A stretch of DNA of 61,443 bases, filler included. It is 4 parts of 4 records of this genome, joined end to end, with 100 filler letters (N's around TTAATTAATTAA, not from the genome) between each part and the next. Parts side by side here need not be neighbours in the genome. Positions count along the whole stretch, not along the records: positions 41,309 to 56,131 come from SRR20825010_3131; 3 more parts are not named here. The stretch is one strand, 5' to 3'. This document shows, one piece after another, positions 7,243-53,817 of this stretch. A model generated the notes under the pieces. It searched no databases and was not told the origin of the DNA. It saw nothing but the letters and a program-made list of their open reading frames with translations. The translations under genes were made by a program, and so were the position numbers. The stretch's first letter is position 1. Every line of letters starts with the position of its first letter.

Positions 7243-7272
7243 GATATCCGCCTGTCTCCACCCCCAATAATA

Positions 7273-7357
7273 CCGTCATCCTCGCGTAAGCGGGGACCCA
7301 GTGATCGTAGAGCGGTACCCGATGTTCCCTGGGTCCCCACGTGCGTGGGGATGACGG
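7273..7357. repeat. REP-like inverted dimer (CGTC type)
   Basis: CCGTCATCCTCGCGTAAGCGGGGACCCAG ... CTGGGTCCCCACGTGCGTGGGGATGACGG: two inverted 29-nt units, each with an internal hairpin, between convergent genes. Confidence 0.8.
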
Positions 7358-7384
7358 CCCAAAAAAGATAGGGCGAGGGGAGCG

Positions 7385-45291: not shown

Positions 45292-47027
45292 TGGCGGCGC
45301 TTGATCCGGTCACCCTCGCGGTTCTGAAAGGGCGGCTCGAACAGATCGCGGACGAGATGGACGCGACCCTGTTCCGCAGCGCCTTCAACCCGATCATCGC
45401 CGAGGCGCACGACGCCTCGCACGGGCTCTATCATGCCGAGACCGGCGAGACGCTGGTGCAGGGCAAGTCCGGCCTGCCGATCTTCGTCGGCGCCATGTCC
45501 TTCGCGGTGAAGGCCGTGATCGACAAGTTCGGCGCCACGGGCGGGATCAGCGAAGGTGATGTCTTCATCTTCAACGATCCCTATGAAGGCGGCACCCACC
45601 TGTCCGACTTCAAGCTGGTGCAGCCCTTCTACCGGGACGGCAAGCTGTTCTGCTTCCTAGCCTCGGTCGGCCATTGGCACGATGTTGGCGGCAATGTGCC
45701 GGGGAACTACAACCCGGTCGCGACCGAGAGCTTCCAGGAAGGCATGATGATCCCGCCGGTGAAGCTGTTCTCCAAGGGAGAGCTGCGGCAGGACGTGATC
45801 GATATCATGCAGGCCAATTCCCGCCTGCCGGGCAGTCTCTATGGCGATCTGAACGGCCAGATCAACGCGCTGCGTCTCGGTAACGACCGGCTCGGCGCGC
45901 TCCTTGGTGAATATGGCGCGGACACTGTCGCGGGCGCCATGACCGAGCTGCGGGATCGGGCCGGGCAGCTCATGCGCAGCCTGATCGCAGACATGCCGGA
46001 CGGCCGCTATTCGGCGGACGATTTCCTCGACAATGATGGCATCGTCGACGAGCCGCTGCGCATCGCGCTCGATATCGTCATCGAGGGTGAGACCATGACA
46101 CTCGATTTCTCCCGGACCTCACCTGCCTGTGCCGGCCCGGTGAACATCTCCCGCTCGACCGCGATTGCCTCCTGCTACGTGGCGCTGAAGCATGTCTTCA
46201 AGGACGTGCCGGCCAATGCGGGTGTGCTGGAGCCGATCACCTTCGTCATTCCGGATGACAGCCTGCTGAGCGTCAAGGCGCCCAAGCCCGTCGGCGGTTA
46301 CACCGAGACCATTTTGCGCATCATCGACACCGTGTTCGTTGCCCTCAGCGACGCGGCGCCGGAGATGGTGAACGGCTGCGCCTACGGCACCATCAACGCG
46401 CTATCGCTGGCCGGGCACCGCAAGAACGGCCAGCGCTGGGTGATGTTCTCCTTCTTCGGTGGCGGCCATGGCGGCAATCCGGAAGGCGACGGGCTGAACC
46501 ACGGCAACGCGCCGATCTCGACGGCGACCATCCCGCCGATGGAAATCCTGGAAGCTGCCTATCCGGTCCGCTTCACCCAATGGGCGTTGCGGCCTGATAG
46601 CGGCGGCGCCGGGCGGCATCGCGGCGGCCTCGGGGCGATCTACGAGATCGAGCTGCTGGAAGAGAAGGCGGATGTCTTCCTCTTTGGTGAGCGCGGCCGG
46701 TTCGCGCCGCATGGTGTGGTCGGTGGCGGCGACGCCGCTCTGAACACATTCACCTACGAGCAGGTGGATGGCACTCACACACCGCCAATGGCCTCGAAGA
46801 TGGTCGGCATCAAGCTGGCGCAGGGCCAGAAGGTCCGACTGGAGACGCCGGGCGGCGGCGGCTACGGCGACGTGCTGGAACGCGCGCCTGACGCTGTCGC
46901 GGAGGATGTCCGGCTCGGCTATGTCAGCGCCGATGCGGCTGCCAAGACCTATCGCACAATTATCGCCGCCGACGGATCCGTCGACACAGCGGCTACCGAA
47001 ATCCTGCGCGCGGAGTCTGCGCAATGA
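45288..47027 (+). CDS. Hydantoinase B/oxoprolinase subunit
   Basis: RSAFNPII.E, NDPYEGGTHLSD, GHWHDVGG, DSGGAG and TPGGGGYG. Confidence 0.94.
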   Translation: MMAALDPVTLAVLKGRLEQIADEMDATLFRSAFNPIIAEAHDASHGLYHAETGETLVQGKSGLPIFVGAMSFAVKAVIDKFGATGGISEGDVFIFNDPYEGGTHLSDFKLVQPFYRDGKLFCFLASVGHWHDVGGNVPGNYNPVATESFQEGMMIPPVKLFSKGELRQDVIDIMQANSRLPGSLYGDLNGQINALRLGNDRLGALLGEYGADTVAGAMTELRDRAGQLMRSLIADMPDGRYSADDFLDNDGIVDEPLRIALDIVIEGETMTLDFSRTSPACAGPVNISRSTAIASCYVALKHVFKDVPANAGVLEPITFVIPDDSLLSVKAPKPVGGYTETILRIIDTVFVALSDAAPEMVNGCAYGTINALSLAGHRKNGQRWVMFSFFGGGHGGNPEGDGLNHGNAPISTATIPPMEILEAAYPVRFTQWALRPDSGGAGRHRGGLGAIYEIELLEEKADVFLFGERGRFAPHGVVGGGDAALNTFTYEQVDGTHTPPMASKMVGIKLAQGQKVRLETPGGGGYGDVLERAPDAVAEDVRLGYVSADAAAKTYRTIIAADGSVDTAATEILRAESAQ

Positions 47028-49093
47028 ATGATCTGAGCCGGAAGACCGTCGTCGGAGTCGATGTCGGCGGCACGTTTACCGATCTGTTTTTCCTCGACGA
47101 AGCAGCCGGAACCTGCGGCGTTGCCAAGGTCCCCTCGACCAAGCCGGACCAGTCGGTCGGCATACGCGGCGGCATCGGCGAGGGCGGTGTGGAGCTTGGC
47201 GCCATCGGCACCATCGTGCATGGCACCACGGTCGGCACCAACGCGCTGCTGGAACGCAATGGCGCCCGCACCGGTGTCATCACCACGACCGGTTTCCGTG
47301 ACGTGCTGGAAATGCGCCGCCGCGACCGGCCGCAGACCTGGGGCCTCTGGGGCAGTTTCGACCCGGTGGTGCCGCGCGACCTGCGCCTTGAGGTGGATGA
47401 ACGGGTGCTGGCCGACGGCTCCGTGCATACCGCCGTCGATCCGGACGCCGTGAAGCAGGCCGCCAAGACATTGCTCGAACGCGGCGCCGAATCCGTCTGC
47501 GTCTTCTTCGTCAATTCCTACGCCAACGACGCGAACGAGAAGGTGGCGCTTGAGGCCGTCCGCGAGGTCTGGCCGAACCCGCATATCACGGCTTCCAGCG
47601 TGATCCTGCCGGAAATCCGTGAATTCGAACGCGGTTCGACCGCCTCTCTCAACGCCTATCTTCAGCCTCCGGTGGGCAACTACCTCGAGCGTCTGGAAGA
47701 CGGTCTGCGCGATGGCGGTTTCGGCGGCCAGGTGCTGATCGTGCAATCGAACGGCGGCGTCATGTCGGCCAAGGTGGCGCGGGAGCTGCCTGTGCGCACG
47801 GCGCTCTCCGGCCCGGCTGCAGGCGTCATCGCCGGGGCCTATATCGCGGAAGCCGCAGGCGAGCCGAACATCATCACCTGCGACATGGGCGGTACCAGCT
47901 TCGATGTCTCCCTCGTCGCGGACGGGCAGAGCGCACTGAGCGCCCAGACCTCCATCGATTTCGGCATGGTGGTCCGCACCCCGATGATCGAGATCACCAC
48001 CATCGGCGCAGGCGGTGGCTCCATTGCCTCCGTCGACCGTGGCGGGCTGCTGCAGGTAGGCCCGGAAAGCGCGGGCTCCGACCCGGGCCCGGTTTGCTAT
48101 GGGCTCGGCAACACGCGTCCGACCGTGACCGATGCGAACGTGGTCATGGGCCGGATCAATGCAGAGCGCCCGATCGGCGGCAAGCTGGACCGGCTCGACG
48201 TGGAGGCATCGAAAGAGGCCATTCGCGTGCATGTGGCGGAGCCGCTTGGTATCGAGGTGATGGAGGCGGCGGAAGCCATCGTCCGGGTCGCCAATGCCAA
48301 GATGGCGGGCGCCATCCGTCTTGTTTCCATCGAGCGCGGGCACGACCCGAAGACCTTCACCGCCATGCCGTTCGGCGGTGGCGGCTCGCTGCATACCGGT
48401 GCGCTGATCAAGGAAGTCGGCCTCGCCCGTGCGCTCGTCCCCCGCTATCCGGGTGTGACCAGTGCGCTCGGCTGCGTCATCGCCGACATGCGGCATGACC
48501 GGGTGCAGACCCTGAACACCATGCTGGACATGCTCGATCTCTCGGCCCTGAACAAGGCGGTCGAGGAAATCGTGATCGAGGCTGAAGGCCTGCTGGACGG
48601 TGCCAACGTCGCCTTCGAGGGCATCGAGCGTCTGGTTGAGTTCGACATGCTCTATCTTGGCCAGACCCATACGGTTTCCGTGCCGGTTGCTGACGCGATG
48701 AATGGCAGCCGGTCGGTACTCGATACGGTGAAGATCAAGGCGGCGTTCGAGGCGGCTTACAAGGCCACCTTCGGCAGCCTGCTGGACGGAATCGGCATCC
48801 GGGTGATGAACCTGCGGGTCGCCGTGATCGGCACGCGCCCGAAATTCGATCTGGCACTGCTGGCACCGTCCGAAGGCGGATCGGTCGAGGCCTCGCGCAC
48901 CGGTGCGCGGCAGATCTGGTTCGACAGCAAATGGTGGGACAGCCCGGTCTATGATCGTCTGTCATTGCCGGTCGGTGCGGAAGTGCCGGGTCCGGCGGTG
49001 CTGGAGCAGGCGGACACCACCATCCTGGTCGATCCGGACCTCACGGGCACGGTCGACAGCTACGGCAATTTCGTCATTGCGAGGAAAGCCTGA
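47024..49093 (+). CDS. Hydantoinase A/oxoprolinase ATP-binding subunit
   Basis: DVGGTFTD, HGTT.GTNALL, SGPAAG, DMGGTSFD, GPESAG and PTVTDA. Confidence 0.95.
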   Translation: MNDLSRKTVVGVDVGGTFTDLFFLDEAAGTCGVAKVPSTKPDQSVGIRGGIGEGGVELGAIGTIVHGTTVGTNALLERNGARTGVITTTGFRDVLEMRRRDRPQTWGLWGSFDPVVPRDLRLEVDERVLADGSVHTAVDPDAVKQAAKTLLERGAESVCVFFVNSYANDANEKVALEAVREVWPNPHITASSVILPEIREFERGSTASLNAYLQPPVGNYLERLEDGLRDGGFGGQVLIVQSNGGVMSAKVARELPVRTALSGPAAGVIAGAYIAEAAGEPNIITCDMGGTSFDVSLVADGQSALSAQTSIDFGMVVRTPMIEITTIGAGGGSIASVDRGGLLQVGPESAGSDPGPVCYGLGNTRPTVTDANVVMGRINAERPIGGKLDRLDVEASKEAIRVHVAEPLGIEVMEAAEAIVRVANAKMAGAIRLVSIERGHDPKTFTAMPFGGGGSLHTGALIKEVGLARALVPRYPGVTSALGCVIADMRHDRVQTLNTMLDMLDLSALNKAVEEIVIEAEGLLDGANVAFEGIERLVEFDMLYLGQTHTVSVPVADAMNGSRSVLDTVKIKAAFEAAYKATFGSLLDGIGIRVMNLRVAVIGTRPKFDLALLAPSEGGSVEASRTGARQIWFDSKWWDSPVYDRLSLPVGAEVPGPAVLEQADTTILVDPDLTGTVDSYGNFVIARKA

Positions 49094-49701
49094 TGAGCGG
49101 GGAATTCGATCCGAAGACGACGGCGCTGCTGCTGGTCGACATGCAGAATGACTTTTTGCACCCGGCAGGGGCCTATGCGCGTGGCGGTGCCGGGGCGGCG
49201 GAGATCGCGGCCCTGCCGGAGGCGCTGAAGCCGGTGGCGGACAGAATGCGGGAGATCGGCGGCTGGATCGTCTCCACCCATTTCACGCTGGTTCCCGGCA
49301 AGGAGGGTGAGCCCTTCATCTCGCCGCACCTGAAGCAGCTCCGTCCGTTCCTGCGCAAGGGCGATTTCGAGCCTGGCCGTTTCGGTCAGGACCTGATCGA
49401 GGGGCTGGCGCCCGCCGATATCAAGGTCGAGAAGGTGGCTTTCTCAGCTTTCTACATGAGCCGTCTCGAATGGGTGCTGAACCGGGCGGGGATCGAGCAT
49501 CTGATTGTCGGCGGCATTGTTACCAATGGCGGCGTTGCCTCGACCGTGCGCGATGCCCATGTCCGGGATTTCCATGTCACCGTGCTTTCCGACGGTTGCG
49601 CGGCCTTCTCTCCGGAAGTGCACGAAACCAACATCGCCGCTCTGAAGAGTGTTGCCGGGATTGATGATTGCGCCAGCGTGATCGAGAGGCTGAAGCCATG
49701 A
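49093..49701 (+). CDS. Isochorismatase-family hydrolase lacking the catalytic Cys
   Basis: LLVDMQNDF, EK.AFSAF and GIVTNGGVASTVRDA. Confidence 0.88.
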   Translation: MSGEFDPKTTALLLVDMQNDFLHPAGAYARGGAGAAEIAALPEALKPVADRMREIGGWIVSTHFTLVPGKEGEPFISPHLKQLRPFLRKGDFEPGRFGQDLIEGLAPADIKVEKVAFSAFYMSRLEWVLNRAGIEHLIVGGIVTNGGVASTVRDAHVRDFHVTVLSDGCAAFSPEVHETNIAALKSVAGIDDCASVIERLKP

Positions 49702-51083
49702 TCGGCGTTGCATCTCCGGAAGATATCGAGTTTCCCGCCTGGGTCCAGACCATCGTCATTGGTGCCGGGGCCTGCGGGTTGACGGCGGCGCTGGCGGCGC
49801 TGGCGGCGCAGGATGCGGGCGGTGAGGTGCTTGTGCTGGAGCGGGACGAGAGCCCGTTTGGCTCCACCTCCATGTCCTCGGGCTTTATTCCGGCAGCGGC
49901 AACGCGCTGGCAGCAGGAACAGGGGATCGACGACGATCCCAGCCTGTTTCTGGAAGACATTCAGCGCAAGTCCCACGACCGCTCCGATCCGACGGTAGCG
50001 GCTGAAGTGACCGAGGCCATCGGCCCGGCGCTGGAATGGCTGGAGGACGAGCACGGCATTCCGTTCGAGGTGCTGGACGGTTTTCTCTATCCCGGACACA
50101 GCCGGCACCGGATGCATGCCGTGCCTGAGCGCACCGGCGAAGCCCTGCTGACCCGGCTTTTGCAGGCGGTGATGGCGGCGGGTATCCCGGTGATGACCGA
50201 TGCCAGGGTGACGACACTGTTCGCCGATGAAGACGGCCTGATCTCCGGTGTCGAGGTAACCCGGCCCGATGGCACGACGGAGCTGATCGGCTGCGACAGC
50301 CTGATCCTGGCCTGCAATGGTTATGGCGGTAACCCGGAGATGGTGTCGGCGAACATCCCCGCCATGGCCGAGGCGGAATATCACGGCCATGCTGGCAATA
50401 CCGGTGACGCGGTGCTCTGGGGGGAGGCGCTCGGCGCCGAGGTGCGCGATCTGACGGCCTGTCAGGGCCACGGCTCCCTCGCCATGCCGCACCGTATCCT
50501 GATCACCTGGGCGCTGATGATGGAAGGCGGCATCCAGGTCAACAAGAACGGCGACCGGTTCGCCAACGAGCATCAGGGATATAGCGAACAGGCCGTCGAC
50601 GTGCTGAAGCAGCCGGACGGCGTGGCCTTCGATATCTATGACGCCCGGCTGCACGCGCTCGGGCTGGAATTTCCCGACTACAAGGACGCGGTCAATGCCG
50701 GTGCGGTCAGGCAATGCGACAGCGTCGAGGAACTGGCCGAGCATATCGGCGTGCCGTTTGACAATCTGGACGCTGCCATTGCCGCAACCCACACGGATGA
50801 GGTTGACCGGTTTGGCCGTGATCTTGGCAAGACGCCAGGTTTGGAAGATCCGTTCTTTGCTGTCCGCGTCACCGGCGCGCTGTTCCACACCCAGGGCGGC
50901 CTCGCCATCGATGGTGAGGCACGCGTGCTGCGGGACGATGGCAGTCCGTTCCCGAACCTGTTCGCCGCTGGCGGTGCCGCCGTCGGTGTCTCCGGTCCGG
51001 ACATTTCGGGCTATCTCTCCGGCAACGGCCTGCTGACCGCAATTGCGCTTGGCCGGATCGCCGGAGAGGCCGCCGTCAGGTAA
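49698..51083 (+). CDS. FAD-dependent oxidoreductase (fumarate reductase/KstD/TcuA-like)
   Basis: GAGACG, GSTSMSSG, NTGD, RFANE, HTQGG and GYLSGNGL; ATGA overlap places the start at 49698. Confidence 0.88.
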   Translation: MIGVASPEDIEFPAWVQTIVIGAGACGLTAALAALAAQDAGGEVLVLERDESPFGSTSMSSGFIPAAATRWQQEQGIDDDPSLFLEDIQRKSHDRSDPTVAAEVTEAIGPALEWLEDEHGIPFEVLDGFLYPGHSRHRMHAVPERTGEALLTRLLQAVMAAGIPVMTDARVTTLFADEDGLISGVEVTRPDGTTELIGCDSLILACNGYGGNPEMVSANIPAMAEAEYHGHAGNTGDAVLWGEALGAEVRDLTACQGHGSLAMPHRILITWALMMEGGIQVNKNGDRFANEHQGYSEQAVDVLKQPDGVAFDIYDARLHALGLEFPDYKDAVNAGAVRQCDSVEELAEHIGVPFDNLDAAIAATHTDEVDRFGRDLGKTPGLEDPFFAVRVTGALFHTQGGLAIDGEARVLRDDGSPFPNLFAAGGAAVGVSGPDISGYLSGNGLLTAIALGRIAGEAAVR

Positions 51084-51141
51084 GCCTCACTCCGCCGCAG
51101 CCAAAGTTGACATGCGGGAAGGGGGAGGTAAGTTCGTGCCC

Positions 51142-51216
51142 GTGAGGTAACGTCCTCACCCCAGTATGGGAATAAACGCCCGGGAACGGCCCGGCCCACC
51201 TAACAGAAGGGGCCGG
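51142..51216 (+). ncRNA. Variant guanidine-II (mini-ykkC)-like riboswitch
   Basis: Two ACG-loop hairpins (GTGAGG-TAACGT-CCTCAC; CCGGG-AACGG-CCCGG) and an alternative helix CCGGCCC/GGGCCGG overlapping the SD, upstream of a gdx-like start. Confidence 0.6.
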
Positions 51217-51219
51217 TCG

Positions 51220-51297
51220 ATGGCTTGGTTAAATCTCGTTCTTGCAGGCAATCCTGAAACGGATCGGCCAATCGGGCTGACGCTGACCAGCGCTTAG
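51220..51297 (+). pseudogene. sugE: Decayed, truncated gdx (sugE) SMR transporter fragment or leader ORF
   Basis: MAWLNLVLAGNPETDRPIGLTLTSA* aligns without gaps to the SMR/Gdx first helix (MAW..L..AG..E..W.IGLK), keeping G10 and E13. Confidence 0.7.
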
Positions 51298-51305
51298 TAC
51301 CCGCC

Positions 51306-52487
51306 ATGACAAACGATCCCGATATTGAGGCCGATGGCTCCGGCCGTTCGCTCCCTGAAGTGCCGTCCGATCGCTGGGCGCTGTTGCGCTGGTTCGTATC
51401 GTCCGCGACCATGAATTTTCCGCAGGCAGCCTCCCCGGTCGCGTTTTCGCTGCTTGCTCTGAGCCTTACCGGAGACTCCGGTCAGGGTGCCGCGCTGATC
51501 CTCGCCATGACGCTGGCCCAGGTGCTTGGCGCGATCCCGATCACGCGTCTGGGCAGGAACTTCCAAGCAGCAAGGTTCCTGCAAATCTTGATCGTGATCC
51601 GCACGCTGGCTCTGGTGTTGATGGCCGCACTGGCGGCGCATGGTGTTGCCTTTGTCTGGTTGTTCGTGTTCGCGGCAGTTGCAGGATCGGTGAATGGCGC
51701 GGCTTTCGGATATCTGCGCTCGATCCTGAACAGTCTGACATCGACGACAAGACTGCCCCGGGCACTGGGCATCTCGGCGACACTCAACGAGGTCACGTTC
51801 GTTCTTGCGCCGGTGGCCGCGTCGGGGCTCGGGACGGTCTCACCGATCTTCGCCATCCTGGCGCTGGCACTTCTTGGCGCCGTCCCTGTCTTTCTCGTCC
51901 CGCATATCCAGTCGGTTCACGGTGAGAAGGTGCGGGCGGCCAAGACCTCGGTGCTCACCCCGGCGATTGCCTTGTGGCTTATGTGCGGGGCGGCCGGCGG
52001 CGCCACCGTCGCCGCCATAGAGATCGGCGCTGTCGCCCTCGCCCTGGAGTTCGGGTACGAGCCCGCGCTCGCCATCCTGTTCACGGTCCCGTTGTGCCTG
52101 TCTTCCGTTACAGGAGGCATCCTGGTCAGCATTTACAATCGCACGCTCTCCCGCCGGACGGTGGTGCTTCTGCTGGCGCTCATGGCTGCCGGGGCCACAC
52201 TTGCCGCGTTCCAGCTGTCTCTCACGGCAACCATTATCGGCGCCGTCCTGATCGGCTGCGTTCTCGCGCCTCTGGGGACATACTACTCCCTTATCCTCGA
52301 TACGCTTGTTACGCCGGATAAACGCCCGGAAGTGTTCGCCCTGTTGCGTACATCGAACGCGGTCGGGGTGATCTTCGCGAGCGGAGTGCTGACCGCTTTC
52401 TCAATACCGGTGGCACTGGGCGTTGTCGCGACTCTGATGTTTATCGTCACGTTGGTGGTCGCGGCTGCGTCATTCCGGGAGGTTTGA
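51306..52487 (+). CDS. MFS transporter
   Basis: 393 aa, about 11-12 hydrophobic segments in two halves, E.TFVLAP motif. Confidence 0.82.
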   Translation: MTNDPDIEADGSGRSLPEVPSDRWALLRWFVSSATMNFPQAASPVAFSLLALSLTGDSGQGAALILAMTLAQVLGAIPITRLGRNFQAARFLQILIVIRTLALVLMAALAAHGVAFVWLFVFAAVAGSVNGAAFGYLRSILNSLTSTTRLPRALGISATLNEVTFVLAPVAASGLGTVSPIFAILALALLGAVPVFLVPHIQSVHGEKVRAAKTSVLTPAIALWLMCGAAGGATVAAIEIGAVALALEFGYEPALAILFTVPLCLSSVTGGILVSIYNRTLSRRTVVLLLALMAAGATLAAFQLSLTATIIGAVLIGCVLAPLGTYYSLILDTLVTPDKRPEVFALLRTSNAVGVIFASGVLTAFSIPVALGVVATLMFIVTLVVAAASFREV

Positions 52488-52542: not shown

Positions 52543-53817
52543 TTATGCGCCAAGCGCGCGCAGGCAGAGGGAGGCGTTTACCCCGCCGAAGCCGAAGCTG
52601 TTGCAGAGCGCACTGCGGAGTGTCTTCGCCCGCGCTTTCAGCGGGATGAAATCCAGATCTTCCGCGCCATCGTCGGCACTGCCGAAATTCAGCGTCGGCG
52701 GCAGAACCCCGCGCAGCACGGCGAGGGTGGAGAAGACTGCTTCCACACCGCCTGCGGCGCCGAGCAGGTGCCCGATGGAGGATTTCGTCGAGGAGATCGG
52801 TATCCCGGCAAGCGCCGCGCCGAACACCCGGCGAAGTGCGGCGATCTCGCCCCGGTCGCCGACCGATGTGGATGTCGCGTGACCGTTGATATAGCCGATT
52901 GCGTCCGGACTCTCCGACGCCCGCTTCAGGCAGGCGTCGATGGCAAGTGCCGCGCCCGAGCCGTCTTCCGGGCCCGCCGTCAGGTGGTAGGCATCCGCGC
53001 TGGTGCCGTAGCCCGCGACCTCGACCAGCGGTGTGGCGCCGCGCGCCTCGGCATGGCTTTTTCGCTCAAGCACGACCAGTCCCGCGCCTTCACCCAGCAC
53101 GAACCCGTCCCGGTCCCTGTCATAGGGCCGTGAGGCCTGTTCCGGCGCTTCGTTCCGGGTGGAGAGGGCACGGGCTGCCGCGAAGCCGCCGATGGTCAGC
53201 CGGTCGATGCAGGCTTCCGTGCCGCCCGCGAGAACCACATCGGCCTCGCCCGCACGGATCAGCCGCATGCCGTCGCCGATGGCCTGGAGCCCGGCGGCGC
53301 AGGCGGTGACCGGCGTGTCGATCGGTCCCCGGAAGCCGTAGCGGATGGAAATATTTCCGGCGGCGAGGTTTCCGAGAAACGCGGGGATGACGAAGGGGGA
53401 GAGGCGGCGGTAGCCGCGCTGGTCGAGGGTGGTCTTGGCTTCCGTGATCACCGGGAAGCCGCCGATGCCGGTGGCGACGGCGGTTGCCGTGCGGTCGCGG
53501 CTTTCCTGATCCTCCGGCTTCCATCCGGCCTGGCTCAAAGCCTCTTCGGCCGCCGCCAGCGCGTAGATGGTGAAGAGATCGACCTTCTTGCGGTCCTTCG
53601 TCGAGATCACGGCGTCGATATCGAGGCCCGCTTCCGGGTCTTCCTCAATGGACGGGACCAGCCCGGCAATGCGGGTCGGCAGGTCGGAGACATCAATCCG
53701 GTCAATCGCACGGATGCCGGAACGGCCTGAGAGGAGCCTGTTCCACACCGCATCGACACCCCGTCCAAGAGGCGTCACGAGACCCATGCCGGTTATCACA
53801 ATCGGATCGTCAGACAT
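52543..53817 (-). CDS. fabF: Beta-ketoacyl-ACP synthase II, stand-alone paralogue
   Basis: VTACAAG, NGHATST, KSSIGHLLGAAG and NSFGFGG. Confidence 0.93.
   Translation of the reverse strand: MSDDPIVITGMGLVTPLGRGVDAVWNRLLSGRSGIRAIDRIDVSDLPTRIAGLVPSIEEDPEAGLDIDAVISTKDRKKVDLFTIYALAAAEEALSQAGWKPEDQESRDRTATAVATGIGGFPVITEAKTTLDQRGYRRLSPFVIPAFLGNLAAGNISIRYGFRGPIDTPVTACAAGLQAIGDGMRLIRAGEADVVLAGGTEACIDRLTIGGFAAARALSTRNEAPEQASRPYDRDRDGFVLGEGAGLVVLERKSHAEARGATPLVEVAGYGTSADAYHLTAGPEDGSGAALAIDACLKRASESPDAIGYINGHATSTSVGDRGEIAALRRVFGAALAGIPISSTKSSIGHLLGAAGGVEAVFSTLAVLRGVLPPTLNFGSADDGAEDLDFIPLKARAKTLRSALCNSFGFGGVNASLCLRALGA

Follow-up and report, generated by a model that had tools for sequence, protein, structure and literature searches.

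The window analyzed here, the whole DNA stretch of 61,443 nucleotides (nt), carries on its plus strand a gene for a transporter of the major facilitator superfamily (MFS), which is preceded by a short open reading frame (ORF) and by an RNA element related to the guanidine-II riboswitch. The MFS gene (51306-52487), the one that the element would regulate, encodes a protein of 393 amino acids (aa) that matches PF07690 (Pfam MFS_1) over residues 38-358 with 62.6 bits, the cut-off being 33.4; neither an NCBIfam subfamily nor, by sequence, a solved relative was found for it. Ahead of it, two hairpins were read directly from the sequence: P1 (GUGAGG-UAACGU-CCUCAC, 51142-51159), with a 6-nt loop that contains an ACG core, and P2 (CCGGG-AACGG-CCCGG, 51180-51194), whose 5-nt loop corresponds to ACGG with an extra A on its 5' side. 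Between them lie a third conserved hairpin, CCC-AGUAU-GGG (51160-51170, the middle hairpin), and a linker, AA..AA(U/C)G, which extends from it to 51179 and is conserved in an alignment of 40 sequences. P2 is followed by a purine-rich Shine-Dalgarno sequence, GAAGGGG (51206-51212), which is partly covered when the 3' arm of P2 plus CC (CCGGCCC, 51191-51197) pairs with GGGCCGG (51210-51216) in an alternative, off-state helix. A leader ORF of 25 codons (MAWLNLVLAGNPETDRPIGLTLTSA) runs from the ATG at 51220 to a TAG at 51297, and the MFS ATG at 51306 is found 8 nt past this stop, with no purine-rich stretch ahead of it. An earlier note on this DNA had reported both hairpins, the pairing over GAAGGGG and the previously missed leader that stops 8 nt before an MFS start devoid of its own Shine-Dalgarno sequence, and direct reading bore it out on all these points. 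A longer ORF beginning with the ATG at 51166 was rejected: this start is not conserved, and it falls in the middle hairpin, within the variable loop.

The first 20 kb of the window are syntenic with four Nisaea genomes at 80-93% identity, and the closest MFS proteins, 84-88% identical, are found in five Nisaea records, so that the window can be assigned to a further Nisaea species. The nearest genome according to the scan (G001) was rejected as kin, since neither the locus nor its flanks were found there by DNA and protein searches, and its genus was used solely as a source of canonical guanidine-II plus gdx sequences.

Conservation of the switch RNA and of its alternative pairing

The variant is known in around 40 distinct sequences from several alphaproteobacterial orders, and the 40 aligned ones showed 99.0% of 480 stem cells paired. 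The four core pairs of P1 reached 99.4%, and its outer pair was U-A in 16 sequences, C-G in 9, U-G in 3 and unpaired in 12. The two G-C pairs under each loop (GG/CC for loop 1, GGG/CCC for loop 2) were invariant or nearly so; in the middle hairpin the stem was constant, and the loop was free both in sequence and in length (4-6 nt). To judge how invariant the P1 and P2 loops are, only the copies to which the MFS protein led should be used; of these 25, the window included, 20 have UAACGU as loop 1 and 22 have AACGG as loop 2. All five Nisaea loci keep the promoter-like words described below, both hairpins with identical loops and the complement that forms the off-state helix.

When the segment 51138-51312 was folded, the minimum-free-energy structure contained P1, the middle hairpin and the CCGGCCC/GGGCCGG helix, in such a way that P2 was absent. 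The 3' arm of P2 plus CCC has a partner just upstream of the start codon, at -9.5 kcal/mol or lower, in 36 of the 40 sequences, the duplex showing a mean energy of -12.8 kcal/mol and a mean z of -2.0 with respect to shuffled downstream sequence. This partner occurs as GGGCCGG, GGGUCGG, GGGCUGG and GGGUUGG, the changes on the Shine-Dalgarno side being mostly from C to U, so that G-U pairing is kept. The helix is missing in L213 and in three Bosea-type loci (L058, L063 and L070) whose loops are changed and whose P2 is followed by a U-run. As P2 ends 25 nt before the leader ATG, the switch is in the position predicted for a translational switch with a competing helix, and by analogy this off-state architecture would follow the logic of the translational on-switch described for guanidine-II.

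In the three Bosea-group loci just mentioned (L058, 690-775; L063, 4883-4973; L070, 4887-4972) loop 1 reads GAACGU, GUACGU or CAGCGU and loop 2 reads GCCGG or GCCGA, six U residues follow P2, and the MFS gene is intact; judging from the sequences, the switch may have turned into a terminator there, or its regulation may have been lost. In the metagenome loci L147, L157, L202 and L214 the middle hairpin is weakened (CGC..GAG or CCC..GAG) and P2 is likewise followed by U-runs, and in the first three of these the MFS downstream of the switch is split over two frames.

Upstream of P1, a candidate promoter (51107-51134) is formed by TTGACA (51107-51112) and TAAGTT (51129-51134), separated by a 16-nt spacer. 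A TTGAC or TTGAT word was found 36-40 nt before the P1 core in 37 out of 38 distinct upstream sequences. Transcription from such a site would start a few bases before P1, putting this hairpin at the 5' end of the transcript.

Relationship to guanidine-II and distribution of the variant

In guanidine-II riboswitches, according to PMC5558903, 7-40 nt connect the two tandem hairpins, and the 20 nt that separate P1 from P2 in the window fall inside this range. At the gathering level of Rfam no family was matched in the whole window, a 3-kb search was likewise empty, and guanidine-II was not found at this level in the eight MFS loci scanned. When 227 nt of the window were searched, the guanidine-II model RF01068 gave only 10.3 bits (E = 8.6), below its gathering score of 32 bits, and the alignment has insertions in both loops. 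In neither hairpin is the loop an ACGR tetraloop, UAACGU having 6 nt and AACGG 5 nt, with the ACG core retained in both. Since the element fails by tetraloop as well as by score, it was not filed as a member of RF01068.

Its relationship to this family becomes apparent in four Rhizobiaceae loci of the same MFS, from Neorhizobium xiangyangii (L059), Ferirhizobium litorale (L061), Shinella sp. (L066) and Shinella pollutisoli (L071). These loci contain GAGG-ACGA-CCUC, a CCC..GGG hairpin and GGG-ACGA/ACGG-CCC followed by a Shine-Dalgarno sequence, with CCGGG-ACGG-CCCGG or GGG-ACGA-CCC in the place of P2. Because they share the scaffold and carry ACGR tetraloops, the form of the window can be described as a loop-insertion variant of guanidine-II: in comparison with the canonical relative, loop 1 has U-A inserted before ACG and U replacing the purine, and loop 2 has one A inserted before ACGG. 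The locus L066 reached 31.3 bits with RF01068, 0.7 under the gathering score, and R1, a covariance model of the variant RNA built in this analysis, aligned L066 over its full length with gaps only at the extra bases of both loops. These canonical relatives before the same MFS support the assignment to a guanidine-II variant made in the earlier note.

In the four Rhizobiaceae loci the switch lies around 460-510 nt upstream of the MFS gene and is followed first by a PACE-family gene (BTP domain, 151-164 bits) and then by the MFS gene. No paper connecting a guanidine riboswitch with the PACE family was found in a full-text literature search; nor was any description of a loop-expanded guanidine-II, or of the MFS/PACE link, found in the literature, although gene lists in supplements of the mini-ykkC papers may bear on this. 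Canonical guanidine-II above the gathering score was found in none of the five Nisaea genomes. An intermediate switch was observed in Methylobacterium ajmalii (L080, 2961-3045), with AACGA as P1 loop, the same middle hairpin and UCGG as P2 loop. It precedes a SugE-type SMR (small multidrug resistance) gene (115 bits, cut-off 126); the 2 kb from there to the MFS hold a LysR gene and a gene for a small membrane protein.

The positions of the insertions can be compared with the solved structure of guanidine-II, in which, according to PMC5558903, the guanidinium lies between closing-pair G and loop C and is bonded to the G of the loop and to three phosphates; C and G of the loop also pair with the partner loop. 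A functional screen is reported in PMC10351892 to find tetraloops and closing pairs strictly conserved. The extra bases of the variant, placed between the closing G and the ACG core, coincide with the ligand pocket. As read from the loop sequences, pairing is conceivable between CGU in loop 1 and ACG in loop 2, which would give three docking pairs instead of two.

Taken as a whole, the element resembles guanidine-II (RF01068) in its tandem short hairpins with an ACG core in each loop and two closing G-C pairs, in the location of the switch directly before a ribosome-binding site that is hidden by a competing helix, and in its association with a Gdx-type SMR gene, besides having true ACGR relatives before the same MFS. 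It differs in the loops of the window, in the third hairpin within the linker and in its stems, which are nearly invariant in the variant and covary in the guanidine-II family. It differs also in the gene that it would regulate, as MFS was not found named among the genes of guanidine riboswitches in a term search of a 2025 review (PMC12186494).

The retention in orthologous MFS loci, which the earlier note had set as a check, was confirmed: when the MFS protein served as the only query, 73 genome loci were found, and 24 of these have the element directly before the MFS; the leader is present in all five Nisaea genomes. Distant copies were located with a DNA profile of the Nisaea leader applied to upstream regions of MFS homologues, followed by a structural pattern. 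The carriers are Nisaea, Bosea, Methylobacterium frigidaeris, Mesorhizobium liriopis, Aureimonas jatrophae, Tianweitania populi, Alloyangia/Salipiger, Pseudoroseomonas vastitatis, a Phyllobacteriaceae bin, a Rhizobiales isolate and another Roseobacteraceae bin. In a search independent of the MFS, the two loop-plus-closing-pair motifs were compared with a metagenome collection, and 80 of the 92 matching stretches were taken as loci; 19 of these 80 have the full three-hairpin anatomy, the other 61 being without the stems or the middle hairpin. The same MFS family follows at no more than 270 nt in 17 of these 19 copies, which had been found by the RNA pattern; as to the remaining two, L170 continues into a frameshifted Gdx-like gene, and the other ends 89 nt past the element. 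In one metagenome, L138, L151, L162, L174, L175, L186, L203, L209 and L217 share a near-identical stretch of around 60 nt, present on many contigs and often at their ends, with the same 8-base word on both sides; it fits the search pattern accidentally, and a repeat element is the probable explanation.

The model R1 detected one strong copy in each of the five Nisaea genomes (80-88 bits). A second match in G426 was rejected, being inside a TetR-like ORF and limited to the P2 part, as was a match from the draw of 401 genomes (L232), which consisted of a P2-like hairpin alone. The element is rare: in this even draw of 401 alphaproteobacterial genomes the 18-base P2 word was found in two Nisaea genomes and in one chance hairpin. 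The RNA core of around 55 nt has a median identity to the window of 87% in the 24 non-Nisaea loci, versus a median of 64% for the MFS proteins, and values of 94% versus 53-55% were obtained for Alloyangia/Salipiger. The differences in the core fall mostly in the loop of the middle hairpin and in the linker.

The tree of the MFS proteins is divided into two clades with 100% support. The element is absent from a clade of 33 rows, formed by Actinobacteria and three Rhizobiaceae; among the 49 rows of the alphaproteobacterial clade, 31 have the variant, 4 the canonical form and 14 none. The backbone of this second clade is poorly resolved, and the canonical loci do not stand apart from those with the variant, L077 (variant) grouping with L066 and L071 (canonical) with 86% support. 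Such mixing would imply one substrate for the clade, and somewhat favors guanidine for both RNAs; the constancy of the inserted loop bases, for its part, favors an altered pocket. The plasmid-borne MFS homologues L001-L004 have no element, and simple patterns revealed neither a guanidine-III signature nor ACGR hairpins in the 500 nt upstream of the actinobacterial homologues. Other RNAs were noticed in the flanks of MFS loci, namely a chrB-a RNA (L059, 3499-3581, 77.6 bits) and a cobalamin riboswitch (L069, 10509-10708, 139.8 bits).

The leader ORF and its genomic setting

The origin of the leader was studied at both the protein and the DNA level. The 25-aa peptide had no match in Pfam. A DNA profile made from the riboswitch and the first 26 codons of ten canonical guanidine-II plus gdx loci of an unrelated genus, applied to both strands of the 61 kb, had its best match at 51180-51280 (E = 2.5e-6), the next one having an E of 0.91. 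In a single BLASTP comparison with the intact SMR protein of L076 (see below), the peptide showed 13 identities in 24 positions (E = 2e-6), and at the DNA level its first 30 bases are nearly the same as the starts of the SMR genes of L076 and L170. Its 25 codons align with the first transmembrane helix of the Gdx/SugE guanidinium exporters of the SMR family (PF00893), including the conserved Glu at codon 13. These comparisons identify the ORF as what is left of a Gdx-like SMR gene, namely its first 25 codons, in agreement with the gdx relic of the earlier note. The homology is limited to the 5' end of the gene, in such a way that 25 of about 106 codons remain, and a complete SMR protein of around 105 aa, with four membrane helices and a profile match, is not encoded. 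By themselves, the database models (RF01068 with 10.3 bits, and Pfam) would have led to the rejection of a guanidine-II switch with an SMR relic, whereas the DNA profile and BLASTP bore out the SMR origin. The explanation of the differences from the Gdx consensus by single-base changes has to be corrected for codon 21, where Thr (ACG) faces Lys (AAA) in the Nisaea relatives, that is, two changes.

An intact SMR gene of 106 aa is located between the switch and the MFS in L076, a Methylobacterium frigidaeris genome bin. Its product has a Gdx-type N-terminus and matches PF00893 with 75.4 bits; with the NCBIfam models Smr and SugE it gave 147 and 84 bits, both under the cut-offs, so that, unlike Gdx/SugE proteins, it scores higher to Smr than to SugE. 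SMR starts that are recognizable but broken were found in L055, L068, L142, L170, L172, L177 and L194, in addition to the 25-codon form of Nisaea. Leaders without likeness to SMR are present in Alloyangia/Salipiger (63 codons), L056 and L112 (51), L195 (35) and L205 (41), and the start of the MFS occupies the place of the leader in L060, L064, L069, L073, L075, L077, L143, L160, L187, L198 and L208. On this comparative evidence the layout switch-SMR-MFS is the older one, the SMR gene having been deleted or having decayed since then in most lineages. The earlier note had it that an MFS gene replaced most of gdx; this has to be amended to an older SMR-MFS operon, still intact in L076, in which the SMR gene withered. 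The series runs from the intact gene through remnants of 25-112 codons to nothing, and what appears to be preserved along it is an open frame and not a protein. Two side observations concern these loci: the MFS frame is broken near its start in L076 and in L073 (Bosea robiniae), which may reflect assembly errors or real frameshifts, and each of the five Nisaea genomes has a single SMR gene, of the EmrE/Qac type.

All five Nisaea genomes have a leader of the same length, with the same start and TAG, and without any indel, early stop or lost start, in which 13 of the 25 residues vary. The frame is therefore kept and the peptide is not, as predicted by coupling to a gene without its own Shine-Dalgarno sequence. 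The leader stop lies 7-8 nt before the MFS ATG in these five loci and in the window, and overlaps it by 4 nt in ten other loci (L076, L086, L087, L088, L091, L172, L177, L194, L195 and L205) and, by our own reading, also in L056 and L112. The overlap is 14 nt in L142, and the stop precedes the ATG by 29 nt in L068 and by 61 nt in L055. Such a geometry, with a stop beside the start, no own ribosome-binding site and retention in relatives, is the one expected from a coupled leader. The recurrence of leaders that end at the MFS start in separate lineages, with differing peptides, fits translational coupling, the role that the earlier note had also given to the relic. In ATGA-type coupled upstream ORFs the stop likewise overlaps or abuts the start of a gene without its own Shine-Dalgarno sequence; the leader described here differs from them in being a decayed gene whose frame is kept and whose sequence is not.

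Upstream of the unit, a flavocytochrome-c-like flavoprotein gene (FAD_binding_2 in Pfam, 49668-51083, plus strand) forms a cluster at 47024-51083 with a hydantoinase/caprolactamase-alpha-like gene and an isochorismatase-like hydrolase gene. The hydrolase has a weak likeness to biuret amidohydrolase, and the proteins of the cluster are 92-99% identical among Nisaea. A creatinine or hydantoin link of the switch-MFS unit to this operon was rejected because these genes accompany the MFS only in Nisaea, the cluster being unlinked to the MFS elsewhere. Downstream, a convergent ketoacyl synthase gene (52543-53817) is located on the opposite strand, and therefore the unit ends with the MFS gene. Elsewhere in the window, a stretch of around 90 nt at 7261-7358 recurs dozens of times in four Nisaea genomes (73-91% identity), in direct as well as inverted orientation, and looks like a small dispersed palindromic repeat.

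A possible mechanism and its alternatives

We consider, with a probability of around 0.65, that 51107-52487 is a self-contained unit made of a promoter, a switch derived from guanidine-II, a 25-codon leader and the MFS gene. Judging from its sequence relatives, the element is most likely a derived guanidine-II variant that works like one. Without ligand, the 3' arm of P2 would pair with the Shine-Dalgarno region and keep ribosomes from starting at the leader ATG; once ligand is bound, the loops would dock as in guanidine-II, P2 would be held closed, and the Shine-Dalgarno sequence would be freed. Ribosomes would then translate the leader, stop 8 nt before the MFS ATG and re-initiate there, in such a way that the leader peptide would no longer matter and its open frame would. 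By analogy, guanidine or a small guanidino compound is most likely the ligand, and the MFS protein would export it.

Several observations weigh against this interpretation. Covariation is nearly nil, only 1 of the 12 pairs showing changes on both sides, and the helices therefore rest on conservation, on the contrast between fixed stem and free loop in the middle hairpin, and on energy; the whole leader folds no more stably than its shuffles (z = -0.76). The 25 copies found through the MFS protein include close kin (6 from Nisaea, 5 from Roseobacteraceae and 8 Bosea-like) and represent around nine lineages, and the 15 metagenome rows of alignment A2 were chosen by a pattern that demanded these very loops, so that loop invariance among them is no evidence. 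As the ACGR tetraloop, indispensable according to the mutational and structural studies PMC10351892 and PMC5558903, has been lost, the RNA might not bind guanidine. The Bosea-type loci L058, L063 and L070 have no off-state pairing and nonetheless an intact MFS, and therefore regulation can be lost. A scan with the sigma-70 consensus called no promoter, having passed over the candidate site because its second hexamer matches the consensus in just 3 of 6 positions. Finally, no RNA runs are listed with this stretch, and the contigs of four runs guessed to be RNA hold only parts of the MFS ORF, the 5' end being uncovered.

The nature of the ligand admits two readings. The element could be an ordinary guanidine sensor, in which the extra bases bulge out of the loops and the ACG core binds guanidine with unchanged specificity. 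The finding of the same MFS clade behind canonical guanidine-II in the four Rhizobiaceae loci, the lack of separation of variant and canonical loci on the MFS tree (L077 with L066 and L071) and the Gdx-type N-terminus of the SMR partner all speak for it. However, insertions that are merely tolerated should vary, and those found here (U-A before and U after ACG in loop 1, A before ACGG in loop 2) are fixed over several orders, exactly between the closing G and the loop C that sandwich guanidinium (PMC5558903). We thus hold this reading to be credible but short of even odds. A possible, and rather doubtful, view is that the loop-expanded form is a separate subclass sensing a substituted guanidine or another small cation, which the MFS clade would export, as the former Gdx-like SMR protein would have done.

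Two further explanations dispense with ligand sensing in the window. A conserved cis-regulatory RNA, such as a site for a protein or a small RNA, a thermosensor or a stability element, would suit stems that are conserved in sequence and not by covariation, and the binding of any ligand is only predicted. It appears improbable given the clear descent from a ligand-binding scaffold with changes confined to the ligand pockets, and the single copy per genome dedicated to a transporter. Moreover, no conserved neighboring regulator gene was seen, although no systematic search for one was made, and other taxa do not have the neighbors found in Nisaea. The earlier note had left open that the element is dead as a whole. 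It would then be the relic of a guanidine-II/gdx locus, and a nearby promoter would drive constitutive expression of the MFS; an Rfam score far under threshold, a gdx gene clearly destroyed and the loss of loops and pairing in some Bosea copies could be cited in favor of this. Such a relic misfits the data because the RNA core is far better conserved than the MFS protein behind it (the medians of 87% and 64% given above). The RNA is kept, besides, where the trace of SMR is gone and the MFS start occupies the place of the leader, the off-state helix persists in 36 of 40 sequences, and the leader frames are open up to the MFS start, so that we regard this explanation as very improbable.

Riboswitch subclasses with altered ligand pockets, for which new ligands have been shown, are exemplified by ykkC subtype 2 and by the variants of the guanine riboswitch. 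The element of the window resembles them in having a shared scaffold, discrete changes at the ligand contacts and different downstream genes; it differs in being known from sequence alone and in that its downstream MFS is common to the canonical form. To our knowledge, no guanidine sensor smaller than guanidine-II occurs in nature, and the ACGR tetraloops of this class have been treated as untouchable.

The comparisons made here thus describe a rare and widely spread loop-expanded guanidine-II variant that appears dedicated to one MFS clade, and the window would represent one stage in the decay of its Gdx-like partner gene into a coupling leader. It is a natural lineage in which insertions have become fixed in both loops at the ligand site, with the rest of the switch retained. 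If the variant still binds guanidine, the pocket would be more adaptable than has been assumed. A new compound as ligand would instead indicate a metabolite or toxin not yet known, together with what an uncharacterized MFS clade transports, and a separate subclass, should that reading be true, would be the first case of the smallest guanidine aptamer having changed its specificity in nature.

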